This document shows, piece by piece, positions 16,828 through 61,180 of a stretch of DNA of 64,000 nucleotides. The first letter of the stretch is position 1. Each line of letters begins with the position of its first letter. The position numbers and the translations under genes are program-made. This DNA comes from Minisyncoccota bacterium. GTDB lineage: Bacteria > Patescibacteriota > Minisyncoccia > Phycocordibacterales > JAQTLZ01. Location of the stretch: positions 7,656-71,655 of the forward strand of contig JAQTSY010000005.1 of NCBI GenBank assembly GCA_028711065.1. Direction: 5' to 3'. The notes below the pieces were generated by a model, which searched no databases, was not told the origin of the DNA, and was given only the letters and a program-made list of their open reading frames with translations.

Positions 16828-17066
16828 TTTGTATAAAAAAATAAAGACAAAAAATCCTTCTCGATGAAAGAAGGTGACGAAGAGACGCACGCGCGCACTC
16901 TTTAATCTCACATCCTTTACTCGAGGACTGACGAAACATACTTTCGTGCGCGGTATTCGGACTTCTCTTTTTCAAGAGTTACCGTAGCGGTACTGTGCCG
17001 GAATTACACCGGACTTCCCCAACGCAACGAAATAATTTTTCAAACACAACAATCAAAACCGGAAAC

Positions 17067-57155: not shown

Positions 57156-58037
57156 TTAAAGAGCCTTTTCTGCTTCGATAAAAAGATCGAGGTCGCCTGC
57201 AAGCACTTTGTCAGCATTCGAGGTTTCTGCTTCGGTACGATGATCTTTCACCATCTTGTACGGATGGAGCACATACGAGCGAATCTGGCTTCCCCATTCA
57301 ATATCTGTTGAAGAGCTTATTGCCATCCCTTTTTCTTTTTTCTTCCTGTCATCTTCCTGTTTTTTGTAGATCTTCGCTTTTATCATTGCGATAGCTTTCT
57401 CGCGATTTTGCTGCTGGCTTCGCTCGCTCGTTACGTGCACGGAAAATCCTGTTGGAATATAGACTGCACGAACCGCAGTCTCCCGCTTATTCACATTTTG
57501 TCCTCCAGGACCGCCAGCTTTTGCAGTTTCAATTTTAATATCCTGCGCAGGTATTTCGATCTCATCCATTTTTTCGAATTTCGGCAAAACTTCAACAAGC
57601 GAAAAGGAAGTTTGTCGTATGCCTTTTGCACCAAAGGGTGAGATGCGAACGAGACGATGCACTCCCGATTCATTCTTCAGCGTTCCGTACGCCCCCTTCC
57701 CTTCAATCTCGAAGGAAATATTGCGGTATCCGCCGTGGTCATTTTCATTTTGAGAGAGAATTGTCATTCCCCATCCCTTTTTGTCGGCATATTTGGTGTA
57801 CATCTGAAAGAGCATTCCAGAAAAATCTTCCGCGTCATCTCCGCCGGCGCCGGAAAAGATGGTGATGATAGCATCGCCCTTGTCGAATTTCCCCACACCA
57901 GAAAGCTCCTCTTTGAGCGTTTGGATTTCTTTAATGACCACCTGAGCCCGATTTTTGTCAGCCCAAAAATCGGGCTCTGACATACTCGCCTCGAGTTCCC
58001 TTATTTTCTCTTCTTTTGTCTGTTTTATTTCTGGCAT
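57156..58037 (-). CDS. prfB: Peptide chain release factor 2
   Basis: SPF tripeptide (RISPFGAKG), GGQ motif ([10 protein letters not shown]), and the C-terminal RF domain. 293 aa. There is no upstream frameshift segment: a tRNA gene ends 10 nt upstream. Confidence 0.85.
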
Positions 58038-58047
58038 ATTTTTCCGG

Positions 58048-58120
58048 AGCCATCCCCGAGGATCGAACTCGGGACCCCCACTTTACGAAAGTGGTGCTCT
58101 ACCAACTGAGCTAGGATGGC
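58048..58120 (-). tRNA. tRNA-Thr (anticodon CGT)
   Basis: Cloverleaf: acceptor GCCATCC/GGATGGC, D-arm GCTC-AGTTGGTA-GAGC, anticodon stem CCACT/AGTGG with loop TTCGTAA, T-arm CCGAG-TTCGATC-CTCGG, discriminator T. 73 nt. Confidence 0.85.
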
Positions 58121-58127
58121 GATATGG

Positions 58128-58393
58128 AGCCGATGTCCGGGATTGAACCGGAGACCTCGTCATTCATCTATACCTTTATTTCACCTGACTGGGCTTATAA
58201 AAGGATTAGACTGTATCTTGCGCATACCTTTTCGGTTTAGCGTCCCTTGTCAGTCGTTCGAGCGCGTAGAGCGCTACGGTCTTATCCACTTGAATGGACT
58301 TTAACCGTAATTCGGGTTTCAACATTTCGTTTCCAAAATGAAGGGCAATTTTTGTTTACCAATGACGTGCTCTACCAACTGAGCTACATCGGC
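58128..58393 (-). tRNA. tRNA-Thr (anticodon GGT) interrupted by a roughly 193-nt intron between positions 36 and 37
   Basis: 5' exon GCCGATG-TA-GCTC-AGTTGGTA-GAGC-A-CGTCA-TTGGT (58393..58358). 3' exon AA-TGACG-AGGTC-TCCGG-TTCAATC-CCGGA-CATCGGC-T (58164..58128), with CCA encoded at 58127..58125. All stems are perfect once the insert is removed. Confidence 0.7.
58165..58357 (-). ncRNA. Candidate group I self-splicing intron in the tRNA-Thr(GGT) anticodon loop. No ORF.
   Basis: The 5' exon ends in U and the insert ends in G (GGTATAGATG|AA). The insert contains a GAACGACTGACAAGG block (like the P7 5'/R element GUUCAACGACUA) and an AAGATACAGTCTAA block (like the P7 3'/S element AAGAUAUAGUC), with GACTG/CAGTC able to form P7. 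The 193-nt size is near the known minimum (about 205 nt). Confidence 0.5.
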
Positions 58394-58513
58394 TTATAAA
58401 TTCACATGTAAAGAACTACGTAAGAATAGTCTATTTATGCTACATTTTCAATCAATACAAAAACCGCCTTCGGGCGGTTTTCGTACATCTCTCTAAGATG
58501 GAAATCAAAGATT

Positions 58514-61180
58514 TTACTTATCCACTTCCGAGGGTACGACTTTGCAGTTTGCTGTGGCAGTTTGTGTCACTCTGTCACCGTCCCGCACGGGATTCGGCGA
58601 TTCCACTCCATTCCAAGAAGTACATGAGAGTGAGTAGACTTGCGCATTCTGAATCCCTCCACTCACATTAGACGCTCGAGCGTCAGAGAACTTAAATCCT
58701 GGAGGAGGAATGACAACAGCATCTCCTTTTGTCGCAGAGAAATTAGCATTTGTCGAATCGAATCCGACCCCAGTTATGGTGCAGGTTGGAGTATAATTGC
58801 TTTCGAGATTTGTCAGAAGATTACATTGATCGCCTTTCGGAATGAGCGCTGGATCTGCTCTGAATGTCATATTTTGAATCACCGCAGGAGCTGGTCTCGG
58901 TACACATACGTTGTTGACGATAATATGGTCATCAAAATCACACGGAGGTGGTGTTGGGGTTGGCGATGTGGCACAGCTATTGTCTGCTTCGCATCCCGGC
59001 GTCGGGGTAATCTCATCCGTAGGTGTTGGAGTAGGACCGTCATAACTACAAGGTGCTGGTTCTCCTTCGTTGTTAGCATTGGCATCGGTACAGAGATCGT
59101 CATACGTACAGTCTCCCACTTCACCGTTATTGTTCGCCTGTGAATCGGTACAAACATTCTCCGCGGGAACAGTAATAGTAAGATGGAAATCGGTAACCCC
59201 CACTCGTTGTCCCAGATTCACTTTATTCGTCACCCTACCGACAATATCGTTGTCTCCTGGGGTAGTCGGCATATCAAATGGTCCGAAAGAGAATGTGGAC
59301 TGGCTTACGATAAACGAATGTCCCGAGGCTCTTTTTGTTTTCGTCTTGAGTGCTGCCGGCACAGAATTCCCGGGCACGCTCAGAAGTTCCGCTGTAATAT
59401 CTCCAGGAGAGTTTCCGCAAGCAGGGCTGAAGACAGAAAGAAGGACGGTGAATTTCGTACCGTCGGCACTCGGTACCACTGTGCCATATACTGCAGGAGC
59501 GATTTCATGAGCGGTCGCTTTTCCATTTTTCTGATTCACGCTTTCAGTACTATCAACATCAGCCGGCGGCACCCCCAAGCCTGCCTCTACGCTTGCAACA
59601 ATATCTTCCCAGGCTGGTTTTTTGCCTTTTGCAACTTGTTTTGTCGTTGCAGCAAATACTTTCTTCCCATCCACTTTCAGAAAAGTAGCGAGAATGGGTT
59701 TCGATGCTGCCTTCGCCGCCTTCTTTGCCGCTGCAGCATCTTTTCTTGCTTGAATTGCCGCCGCCCTCTCTGCCGCAGTCAGGGCTGCCACATTGGAATT
59801 TCTACTCGCAATTCCATTTACCGCTTTCAGTGAGGGAGACCCGCCAAAGAATACAAGACCTAAAACTCCGACCGCGAAGAGAAGTACAAGTGCTGTTGGT
59901 TCTACTTTTTTCTTGAAGACAGCGATCACAATCAAAATCCCCAGAAGAACGATGCCCCCAACTACCACGATAGGCAGAATAGGCAATCTATTGGCTTCCT
60001 TTATAAGTGCATTTGCCTTTTCCTCATCATAATTGCTCGATAAAGGCTGATTATAAGAAGAAAGAACTGTACCGTGAGAAGAAAGGGTTGCTTCTACCCG
60101 TAAAGCTTTTGCGGCTACGTCTGCTTCAATCTGAACAGCCTGAGCAATAGAATCACTTAAATCTATAGTAGTTGGAGCGTTTTTTCCGACAAGCTCATCT
60201 TTCTCATTAAAAAGTAAGATGCTTAGCTGTGCTGTACCCGTCGCAATACTCTCTCCCGTTTCAATATCATAAGGAACACCGGTAATGTTTGCTACAAGAG
60301 AGATGGTGTCTCCAGGCTGTGCAGAAGTTGTCTTGGCAGTAATCGACTGAATGCTGCCGATATCCCCCGCTACGATGTAGCGAAACGATACTGTCGGAGC
60401 TCTCGCAACGCCACTCTGATCAAGAAAAGAAACGCTTCCTGCATACACCCCACCGGCATAATTAAAAACCGGCAACAAAAGAGTCGCTGTTTTTCCGCTC
60501 TTTGCGGGCAGATCAAGAGGAGTCCCGGTTTGCGTGGTGAGTTCTTTTCCAAGCATTGATTTTTCAAAGATTGAAACGTGAGGGGTAACAGAAATCGCGG
60601 TGGTGCCAGTATTAGAAAGAGCGACAACTAACGAAATTGACTGATCTCTTTTCACTACCGGACCTTCCTGCACGCCAAATTGTCTCTGTCCAATCGCCAC
60701 ATACGCATCAGTCACTTTTGCAAAAGCGCTTCCGCCAGTTACCGTGATGAGAGCATCTTTCCAGCCCATAGGCACGCCACTCTTTAAAAAGTTTTGAATC
60801 TGAATGCCAAGATTGGTACCGCTTATGGCTTCAGGAAGTTTGTAAGAAAAAGGAACACTTCTGACTTCTTGCGCTTTCAACGAAATCGGTCCGAATGTTT
60901 TTGTGTCGTAATTGTCTGTCGGAATTCCATCTTGATAATTCCCCATGAGTGAAATGGTGTAAGAGATTTGAGATACAGCGAATGCGTTGGCATTTACGAT
61001 AGTAAACGTACCAACAACAGTGTCCCCGCTTTTAAAAGAGTCGGAAAGAAGGTTGATATTAGCAACATTCACTTGCGGATTGTCGAGATAGTCGTCAGCA
61101 AAGACAGGAGATGCCGACTGGACAAAAACAGAGCCAGTGACCAAAAGAGAGAGAAGAGATACGAAGAATAGTTTTTTCAT
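58514..61180 (-). CDS. Large (888 aa) surface protein: signal peptide, beta-rich repeats, internal TM pair, Ala/Lys-rich segment, Cys-rich C-terminal domain (hypothetical)
   Basis: MKKLFFVSLLSLLVTGSVFVQSASPVFA signal. Hydrophobic stretch LPILPIVVVGGIVLLGILIVIAVF. C-terminal CTDSQANNNGEVGDCTYDDLCTDANANNEGEPAPCSY.... Confidence 0.45.
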   Translation of the reverse strand: MKKLFFVSLLSLLVTGSVFVQSASPVFADDYLDNPQVNVANINLLSDSFKSGDTVVGTFTIVNANAFAVSQISYTISLMGNYQDGIPTDNYDTKTFGPISLKAQEVRSVPFSYKLPEAISGTNLGIQIQNFLKSGVPMGWKDALITVTGGSAFAKVTDAYVAIGQRQFGVQEGPVVKRDQSISLVVALSNTGTTAISVTPHVSIFEKSMLGKELTTQTGTPLDLPAKSGKTATLLLPVFNYAGGVYAGSVSFLDQSGVARAPTVSFRYIVAGDIGSIQSITAKTTSAQPGDTISLVANITGVPYDIETGESIATGTAQLSILLFNEKDELVGKNAPTTIDLSDSIAQAVQIEADVAAKALRVEATLSSHGTVLSSYNQPLSSNYDEEKANALIKEANRLPILPIVVVGGIVLLGILIVIAVFKKKVEPTALVLLFAVGVLGLVFFGGSPSLKAVNGIASRNSNVAALTAAERAAAIQARKDAAAAKKAAKAASKPILATFLKVDGKKVFAATTKQVAKGKKPAWEDIVASVEAGLGVPPADVDSTESVNQKNGKATAHEIAPAVYGTVVPSADGTKFTVLLSVFSPACGNSPGDITAELLSVPGNSVPAALKTKTKRASGHSFIVSQSTFSFGPFDMPTTPGDNDIVGRVTNKVNLGQRVGVTDFHLTITVPAENVCTDSQANNNGEVGDCTYDDLCTDANANNEGEPAPCSYDGPTPTPTDEITPTPGCEADNSCATSPTPTPPPCDFDDHIIVNNVCVPRPAPAVIQNMTFRADPALIPKGDQCNLLTNLESNYTPTCTITGVGFDSTNANFSATKGDAVVIPPPGFKFSDARASNVSGGIQNAQVYSLSCTSWNGVESPNPVRDGDRVTQTATANCKVVPSEVDK

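Follow-up and report, generated by a model that had tools for sequence, protein, structure and literature searches.

A tRNA-Thr(GGU) gene was located at positions 58393-58125 on the minus strand of the window, which is the whole 64-kb stretch of DNA that was analyzed, and an insert of 193 nt separated its tRNA position 36 from position 37 (Table 1). The minus-strand orientation of the gene had not been given in the original prediction. The 5' exon (58393-58358 on the minus strand, 36 nt, GCCGAUGUAGCUCAGUUGGUAGAGCACGUCAUUGGU) has ...CAUUGGU as its last bases, with U36 at position -1 relative to the 5' splice site. The insert (58357-58165 on the minus strand) runs from AAACAAAAAUUGCC to UAUAGAUG (also given as AAACAAAAAUUGCCC...GGUAUAGAUG), and the 3' exon (58164-58125 on the minus strand, 40 nt, AAUGACGAGGUCUCCGGUUCAAUCCCGGACAUCGGCUCCA) reads AAUGACG...GGCUCCA, with the CCA encoded at 58127-58125. 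When introns were allowed (option -i), ARAGORN reported tRNA-Thr(ggt) i(37,193), and the spliced product was a 76-nt tRNA-Thr(ggt) with all four stems fully paired. The cloverleaf that had been proposed to form once the 193 nt at 36/37 were taken out was therefore recovered, and the final U of the upstream exon and the final G of the insert were both confirmed in the sequence. Neither default ARAGORN nor the Rfam tRNA model called this gene; both reported the neighboring tRNA-Thr(CGU) only. As predicted, the latter was intact and lay 4 nt downstream, at 58120-58046 on the minus strand, with UAUC as the spacer after the CCA of tRNA-Thr(GGU). The two genes are probably cotranscribed. No open reading frame (ORF) of more than 63 aa overlapped the split gene on either strand, and the gene therefore carries no homing endonuclease.

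Table 1. Features of the split tRNA-Thr(GGU) gene and its surroundings, in window coordinates
Feature	Coordinates	Strand	Basis
tRNA-Thr(GGU) 5' exon, positions 1-36, anticodon GGU at end	58358..58393	-	ARAGORN -i and cloverleaf
tRNA-Thr(GGU) 3' exon, positions 37-76, starts AAUGACG	58125..58164	-	Spliced cloverleaf
Group I intron, 193 nt, no ORF; terminal G (omegaG) at 58165	58165..58357	-	
tRNA-Thr(CGU), uninterrupted	58046..58120	-	ARAGORN and Rfam tRNA model, 63.9 bits
Promoter-like TTGAAA-17-TATTCT, ~30 nt upstream of tRNA-Thr(GGU)	58423..58451	-	Consensus match only
P1 hairpin	58344..58360	-	Alignment covariation
P2 hairpin, intron nt 15-38, GAAA tetraloop nt 25-28 (58333-58330)	58320..58343	-	Covariation
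P3 5' strand CCC, intron nt 42-44	58314..58316	-	Compensatory sets
P3 3' strand GGG, intron nt 112-114; closes P3-P7 pseudoknot	58244..58246	-	Covariation
P4-P5 domain	58276..58308	-	Covariation
P6 hairpin AGCGC-UCUAC-GCGCU, intron nt 83-97	58261..58275	-	5/6 pairs compensatory
P7 5' strand GACUG, intron nt 103-107; then J7/3 ACAA	58251..58255	-	Invariant; complementary to 58213-58209
J8/7 AAGAUA (58219-58214) and P7 3' strand CAGUC (58213-58209)	58209..58219	-	Invariance
P8 hairpin ACGCUAAACC-GAAAA-GGUAUGCGC	58220..58243	-	4/4 closing pairs compensatory
P9.0 and P9	58166..58206	-	Covariation

The insert contains the blocks GAACGACTGACAAGG and AAGATACAGTCTAA, which had been likened to the R and S elements of group I introns, together with the complementary pair GACTG/CAGTC. 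Every statement of the original prediction about the sequence itself proved correct. A match to the Rfam group I intron model, to which the original prediction had looked for support, was not obtained. RF00028 scored the intron at 12.9 bits, below its gathering score of 50 (E about 0.7-1.5), and the alignment was misregistered, with only the AAGAUACAGUCU block and P9 placed sensibly and the remainder shifted into the 5' exon. When three sub-windows were searched, the best score was again 12.9 bits, and the match was lost in the narrowest of them. RF00028 misses tRNA-Thr(GGU) introns that are detected by tFind (PMC13011429). A negative RF00028 search had been named in the original prediction among the signs that would speak against an intron, but the low score was not counted as such here, given that this model is documented to overlook the family.

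Homologues were collected with two scans. The genome scan covered one genome per species and used two core blocks, AACGACTRAC and AAGATAYAGTCT, separated by a gap of 15-45, as a query. It gave at least 120 matches, and among the matches listed, those with names came nearly all from Patescibacteria MAGs. The lineages comprised Paceibacteria/Parcubacteria, Saccharibacteria, Moranbacteria, Peregrinibacteria, Uhrbacteria, Daviesbacteria, Doudnabacteria, and others, and the complete genome CP011209 was included. Of 121 regions (the 120 matches listed plus the window), 115 contained a split tRNA according to ARAGORN. This program often assigned the homologues to the wrong tRNA (Arg(GCG), His(GUG), Pro, or Leu) and displaced their introns, an error that is also reported in PMC13011429. 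The homologue in CP011209 (Wolfebacteria GW2011_GWB1_47_1; our L053), for example, was miscalled as Arg(GCG) with an intron at 34/35. ARAGORN behaves in the same way with GCA_001029635.1 in Table 1 of PMC13011429, and the two accessions are probably the same genome. Splice boundaries of the homologues were rederived from the pairing of the anticodon stem. After this, all 114 resolved genes among the matches listed were tRNA-Thr(GGU) split at 36/37, with U at position -1 and G at the end of the intron.

The metagenome scan relied on the P4/J5-4/J6-7 blocks only and left P7 and J8/7 unconstrained. It also gave at least 120 matches, and the resolvable genes (110/110) again proved to be tRNA-Thr(GGU) interrupted at 36/37, their 5' exons closing with U and their introns, of 169-254 nt, with G. 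In total, at least 224 homologues from genomes and metagenomes had the same site in the same tRNA. Among the matches listed, the 114 genome-derived introns ranged from 158 to 266 nt; 54 of them were below 193 nt, which is close to the median. The family was also present in a cultured Niastella isolate, Niastella populi CCTCC AB 208238, whose member is 181 nt long. Among the matches listed, the nearest relative of the window intron was found in a Parcubacteria group MAG (L117), the whole gene (exons and intron) being 89% identical to that of the window, and some of the differences in the pairwise alignment were compensatory, both in the acceptor stem and in P8. We then derived a covariance model from 62 introns, a set that left out the window and its closest relatives. 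This model matched the window at 58365-58157 on the minus strand over its full length, with 164.1 bits and an E value of 1.9e-60, and no second match was found anywhere in the 64 kb. A match of this strength to an independent model excludes chance. The intron alone had a folding z score of -3.0 relative to shuffled sequences.

The secondary structure was examined with a MAFFT alignment of 73 sequences, folded by RNAalifold without guidance. The program returned the anticodon stem, P1, P2, P4, P5, P6, P7, P8, and P9 in canonical group I order, with compensatory changes in 31 of 47 pairs. When P3 and P9.0 were added, 95.7% of the cells were paired, compared with 77.7% for shuffles and 32-43% for slid partners. 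Changes on both sides were seen in 36 of 52 pairs, and none of 500 shuffles matched any of these measures, although kinship within the family means that such a test overstates independence. The P3-P7 and P4-P6 arrangement named in the original prediction as a point to test was thus present in the comparative alignment. The anticodon stem, whose strands lie on either side of the insert, had compensatory changes at all three of its pairs (3/3).

P1 is formed by exon nucleotides G34 G35 U36 and intron nucleotides A1 A2 (58360-58356) with intron nucleotides U10 U11 G12 C13 C14 (58348-58344). The pair U36-G12 is the splice-site wobble and was U-G in 73 of 73 sequences, GCC being the internal guide. 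The two pairs on the intron side of P1 varied (AU, GC, GU, or UA), with the sets AA/UU, UA/UA, and GGG/CCC. Compensatory changes were found in eight of the nine pairs of P2, and among the 114 genome-derived introns, the P2 loop was of the GNRA type in 100 (GAAA in 39, GUAA in 35, GCAA in 20, and others). P3 is only 3 bp long; it was paired in 99.5% of cases, and each of its three pairs showed compensatory changes. The sets CCU/AGG, CUC/GAG, UCC/GGA, and UCU/AGA occurred in the genome and metagenome samples alike. Neither pairing nor covariation was found at the positions flanking P3, where G/A was invariant. The pairing CCCUU (nt 13-17)/AAGGG was considered as the P3 of the family and rejected, since it is unconserved outside the window's subgroup and covariation favors CCC at nt 42-44. 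In the minimum-energy single-sequence fold of the window's subgroup, this pairing competes with P3.

The P4-P5 domain is preceded by J3/4 (GAAUU, 58313-58309 on the minus strand) and consists of P4 ACGGU(U)/(G)ACCGU, J4/5 UAAAG, P5 UCCA(U)/(G)UGGA with its loop, and J5/4 UAAG. P4 was nearly invariant as ACGGU/ACCGU, with a single compensatory double change to ACAGU/ACUGU, and P5, P6, P8, and P9 were rich in covariation. After P6, J6/7 (CGAAC, 58260-58256 on the minus strand) leads into P7. The P7 context, A-C(bulge)-GACUG/CAGUC-U with the bulged C on the 5' side and with AAGAUA as J8/7, fits the consensus, and G103 is presumed to be the partner of C149 in the guanosine-binding pair. Among the matches listed, GACUG/CAGUC was complementary in all 224 sequences, and the 5' strand of P7 was identical in 114 sequences from genomes and 120 from metagenomes. 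Covariation in P7 was sought in the metagenome sample, where P7' and J8/7 had been left free, and none was found, P7 being invariant. Similarly, AUACAGUCUA was invariant in 109 of 110 metagenome sequences, which had been collected without any constraint on AUACAGUCUA.

At the 3' end, P9.0 is formed by the dinucleotide that follows GUCUA and the dinucleotide that precedes the terminal G. In the window, these are AU at 58206-58205 and AU at 58167-58166, the latter directly before omegaG, and they enclose the P9 hairpin at 58204-58173. P9.0 was paired in 111 of 114 introns, with the fully Watson-Crick combinations GC/GC, AU/AU, GU/AC, AC/GU, and UC/GA as well as G-U variants. No clear P10 was found: pairing of the guide with the 3' exon was looked for, but it did not follow the type of exon (AAUGACG versus AAGGAG). 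Two further relationships involved loops. First, the internal loop of P8 resembles the 11-nt tetraloop receptor (CUAA/UAUG), and a GAAA loop on P2 co-occurred with a receptor-type P8 (GCUAA...UAUGC) in 35 of 39 introns, compared with 7 of 75 for the remainder (Fisher test, 5.6e-18, a statistic that ignores kinship). The other GNRA loops on P2 went with a plain helical P8; the window intron has the GAAA loop together with the receptor-type P8. Second, loop L1 was complementary to the last 3 nt of the intron, including the terminal G, in 65 of the 114 genome-derived introns. This complementarity, seen in members with a long P1, puts L1 in competition with P9.0 for the same nucleotides. Together, the at least 224 homologues and the helix-by-helix covariation bear out the original prediction of a group I intron without an ORF at 36/37 of tRNA-Thr(GGU).

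With this anatomy, the 193-nt insert is very likely a genuine group I intron in a Patescibacteria-type genome, a member of the widespread "divergent group I" tRNA-Thr(GGU) family that would follow the standard group I pathway. The pre-tRNA would be transcribed, probably along with the downstream tRNA-Thr(CGU), and the intron would fold into P1-P9, with G34 G35 U36 on the guide GCC and the U36-G12 pair marking the 5' splice site. P3 (CCC/GGG) and P7 (GACUG/CAGUC) would build the pseudoknot of the core, and the GAAA loop of P2 would dock in the receptor-like P8 loop. A free guanosine bound at P7 would then attack after U36, and the terminal G at 58165 would take its place in the P7 site. The 3' splice site would be positioned by the 2-bp P9.0 and by the anticodon stem of the tRNA, which would hold the exons together. 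Finally, U36 would attack the 3' splice site, joining U36 to A37 and releasing the mature 76-nt tRNA-Thr(GGU). We infer that catalysis is carried out by the intron itself and proceeds without a protein. On the other side stand the 3-bp P3, a P7 whose invariance gives it no covariation within the family, and the lack of a clear P10. In a table of PMC13011429, with the column order as we read it, three complete genomes with the intron have one tRNA-Thr fewer by tRNAscan than most of the others listed, and the split gene appears to be their only copy of tRNA-Thr(GGU). The exons are conserved and covary in 224 lineages and the split gene is apparently the sole tRNA-Thr(GGU) copy, both of which speak for accurate removal of the intron.

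It is conceivable, although we consider it improbable, that the tRNA-Thr(GGU) introns are a distinct, naturally minimized branch of group I in which the 3' splice site is perhaps handled differently. The traits that may define such a branch are the 3-bp P3, the G-C closing pair in P7, a dispensable P9, and sizes down to 158 nt. If this were the case, competition between L1 and P9.0 could time or switch the passage from one splicing step to the other, or else control how much tRNA the sole tRNA-Thr(GGU) gene supplies.

An improbable alternative explanation is that the intron derives from group I but no longer self-splices, so that a protein cofactor, a chaperone, or special conditions would be needed and would gate the tRNA-Thr(GGU) supply. 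Its divergent core, with a P3 of 3 bp and an RF00028 score of 12.9 bits, would fit such a loss, as would the competition of CCCUU/AAGGG with P3 in the minimum-energy fold of the window's subgroup. The complementarity between L1 and the last 3 nt (65/114) could likewise sequester the 3' splice site. However, the canonical core is complete and invariant (P7 with the bulged C, J8/7 AAGAUA, an A-rich J4/5, J6/7, and P9.0), the related Asn and Asp introns of Patescibacteria self-splice in vitro (PMC13011429), and the genomes of Patescibacteria are small, with the intron itself encoding no protein. That the gene is a disrupted pseudo-tRNA, with the remnant of an insertion that is never removed, is highly improbable, and this explanation is effectively refuted. 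The failure of standard tRNA finders and of the Rfam tRNA model to call the gene is what would be expected of a pseudo-tRNA, but both exons are intact in 224 independent lineages, all three anticodon stem pairs (3/3) show compensatory changes across the insert, and the acceptor stem does so in the comparison with L117. Moreover, the insert itself is under structural selection, and in the complete genomes of the published table the split gene is apparently the sole tRNA-Thr(GGU). An intron of another type has next to no probability: the anticodon loop position is superficially like that of archaeal or eukaryal tRNA introns, but an endonuclease-cut bulge-helix-bulge intron would have 37/38 as its canonical position and not 36/37, a group II intron had no match in Rfam scans of the window and would be far larger than 193 nt, and neither accounts for the U-G wobble with its guide, the terminal G, and the P3-P7 pseudoknot core.

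Introns of this class had already been described. A set of 15 introns that had the size and structure of group I introns and were undetected by Rfam was named "divergent group I" by Castelle et al. (2018, Nat Rev Microbiol), according to a later preprint (bioRxiv 10.1101/2025.07.03.662931). These introns are said there to be confined to tRNA-Thr(GGT), in candidate-phyla-radiation bacteria, to have a final G, and to be spliced immediately 3' of the anticodon. Williams (2020) built gpI_bact_tRNA.cm and tFind, which brought the bacterial tRNA classes with introns to 21, compared with 4 before (bioRxiv 10.1101/2020.01.27.920355), and Nakagawa et al. (2026) reported Thr(GGU) introns at 36/37 in three complete Patescibacteria genomes (PMC13011429). 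The window intron agrees with the tRNA-Thr(GGU) introns published for candidate-phyla-radiation bacteria in the tRNA, the 36/37 site, the final G, the absence of an ORF, the similar size, and the negative RF00028 result, and we found no difference of substance. Judged by these sequence features, it is another member of the published family. The original prediction knew of no bacterial tRNA-Thr interrupted in this way, a view superseded by the tRNA-Thr(GGT) introns in the literature since 2018 (bioRxiv 10.1101/2025.07.03.662931; PMC13011429). The intron in the window is therefore real and not new. The related claim that it would be among the smallest group I introns, below a known minimum of about 205 nt, did not hold either, given that bacterial tRNA group I introns have lengths of 184-894 nt (PMC13011429) and the family itself spans 158-266 nt. 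In the published descriptions of the family that were consulted, we could not find the covariation of each helix, the shortness of P3 (3 bp), P9.0, the co-occurrence of P2 loop and P8 types, sizes down to 158 nt, or the copy in the cultured Niastella isolate.

The window intron is one more copy of a published family and is ordinary for its probable host phylum. The family is very common in Patescibacteria (at least 120 matches per scan), and at 158-200 nt it has some of the smallest group I cores found in nature. For annotation, the lesson is that standard tRNA finders and RF00028 miss the gene, and the genome would seem to be without a tRNA-Thr(GGU). The copy in the cultured Niastella isolate would make an in vivo test easy.

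The Asn and Asp introns of Patescibacteria, the only ones covered by the splicing assays in PMC13011429, were self-splicing in vitro and are reported as the nearest phylogenetic neighbors of the Thr introns (PMC13011429). They resemble the Thr class in the phylum, the location in a tRNA anticodon loop, the U at -1, and the final G, but differ in that they lie at 35/36 of other tRNAs and are detected by RF00028. Among the introns listed in PMC13011429, they are also longer (about 225-575 nt), and HNH endonuclease genes occur in some of them. A further difference lies in P7, whose closing pair is G-C in the Thr class (GACUG/CAGUC) and A-U in the Patescibacteria Asn intron (GACUA/UAGUC; agagacta ... 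gatagtcc).

The window intron also has features of the Azoarcus-type introns of subgroup IC3, namely, the position after U36, the U-G wobble, the compact P1-P9, the absence of an ORF, and a size of about 200 nt. An intron of this type, in the pre-tRNA-Ile(CAU) of Azoarcus sp. BH72, was reportedly described by Reinhold-Hurek and Shub in 1992, and the IC3 tRNA introns include one in tRNA-Arg(CCU) at 36/37. Azoarcus-type IC3 introns lie in the anticodon loop directly after U36, with a U-G wobble in a short P1. They have a compact P1-P9 of about 200 nt without P5abc, P2.1, P7.1/7.2, or an ORF, a GAAA tetraloop on P2 with its receptor in P8, and a P3 of about 6 bp. The Thr family is like IC3 in having P2, in lacking P5abc, and in combining an L2 tetraloop with a receptor-like P8; it is unlike IC3 in its P3 of 3 bp rather than about 6, its 5-nt J3/4, its failure with RF00028, and its different tRNA and phylum. 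Subgroup IA typically has the extra helices P7.1/P7.2 between P3' and P8. This IA trait was absent from the Thr family: in every aligned sequence, P8 (from column 167) follows directly on P3' GGG (columns 164-166). In the published tree, the Thr(GGU) introns are placed in an IA clade and not in IC, on a long branch among the IA-type tRNA introns of Patescibacteria (PMC13011429).

Of the 114 genome-derived homologues among the matches listed, 65 (for example, those in the homologue regions L003, L031, and L053) have a CGY or CAY at intron nt 5 to 7, in L1, that is exactly complementary, in antiparallel orientation, to the 3 nt at the intron 3' end, terminal G included. This complementarity belonged to introns whose P1 is long (GGGUCGCAAACCC type), and none was found between L1 nt 5 to 7 and the last 3 nt of the window's intron. 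When an exact match anywhere in L1 was counted, 71 of the 114 introns among the matches listed had one, versus 29.5 +/- 3.9 in permutations. The 2 nt preceding the terminal G also pair with J7/9, which makes up P9.0. Therefore, two partners, L1 and J7/9, would compete for the intron 3' end.

An alternative to P3 appeared when the window's intron was folded as a single sequence. The CCCUU at nt 13 to 17, overlapping the final 2 nt of the guide GCC, paired with an AAGGG that includes the 3' strand of P3 (window positions 58341 to 58345 with 58244 to 58248, minus strand). This gives 5 bp as an alternative to the 3-bp P3 supported by covariation, and it is possible solely in the subgroup with GCCCUUC.

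The window's intron, at 193 nt, was longer than 54 of the 114 genome-derived introns among the matches listed. In a 158-nt member (see the table), the entire P9 hairpin was absent, with P9.0 alone remaining, and GC-CAAAA-GC-G was found directly 3' of GUCUA.

One family member interrupts the tRNA-Thr(GGU) of Niastella populi, a cultured Bacteroidota isolate, which could serve as a host for an in vivo splicing test. An ORF for a XerC/D-like tyrosine recombinase lies immediately downstream of this split tRNA gene, and TraD-like and serine-recombinase ORFs are found farther downstream; the tRNA gene therefore adjoins an integrated mobile element. The intron was also present in a few MAGs labeled Gammaproteobacteria, Bdellovibrionales, or Pedobacter, the labels being taken at face value.

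The ORF immediately downstream of the tRNA-Thr pair in the window looks like release factor 2, judging from its translation. It is short, at 293 aa, and the space upstream of it is too small for the usual frameshifted N-terminal part of that protein. A search of the assembly collection gave no record of this protein. On the other side of the pair, the hairpin AAAACCGCCCGAAGGCGGUUUUU follows an 888-aa ORF (58514 to 61180, minus strand) and is probably the intrinsic terminator of that gene. Weak matches to Rfam sRNA models arose from this hairpin.

Features located in the window and in homologue regions
Feature	Location	Strand	Basis or remark
AdoCbl (B12) riboswitch aptamer	window 16903-17044	-	60.5 bits vs gathering score 50 (Rfam)
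ORF, release factor 2-like, 293 aa	window 57156-58037	-	SPF and GGQ motifs in translation
Hairpin AAAACCGCCCGAAGGCGGUUUUU	window 58457-58480	-	between 888-aa ORF and tRNA promoter-like site
158-nt tRNA-Thr(GGU) intron, family member	L038:5925-6082, contig CAZCNP010000001.1	+	homologue scan
181-nt family intron in tRNA-Thr(GGU)	L056:5234-5414, NZ_LWBP01000002.1	-	Niastella populi CCTCC AB 208238
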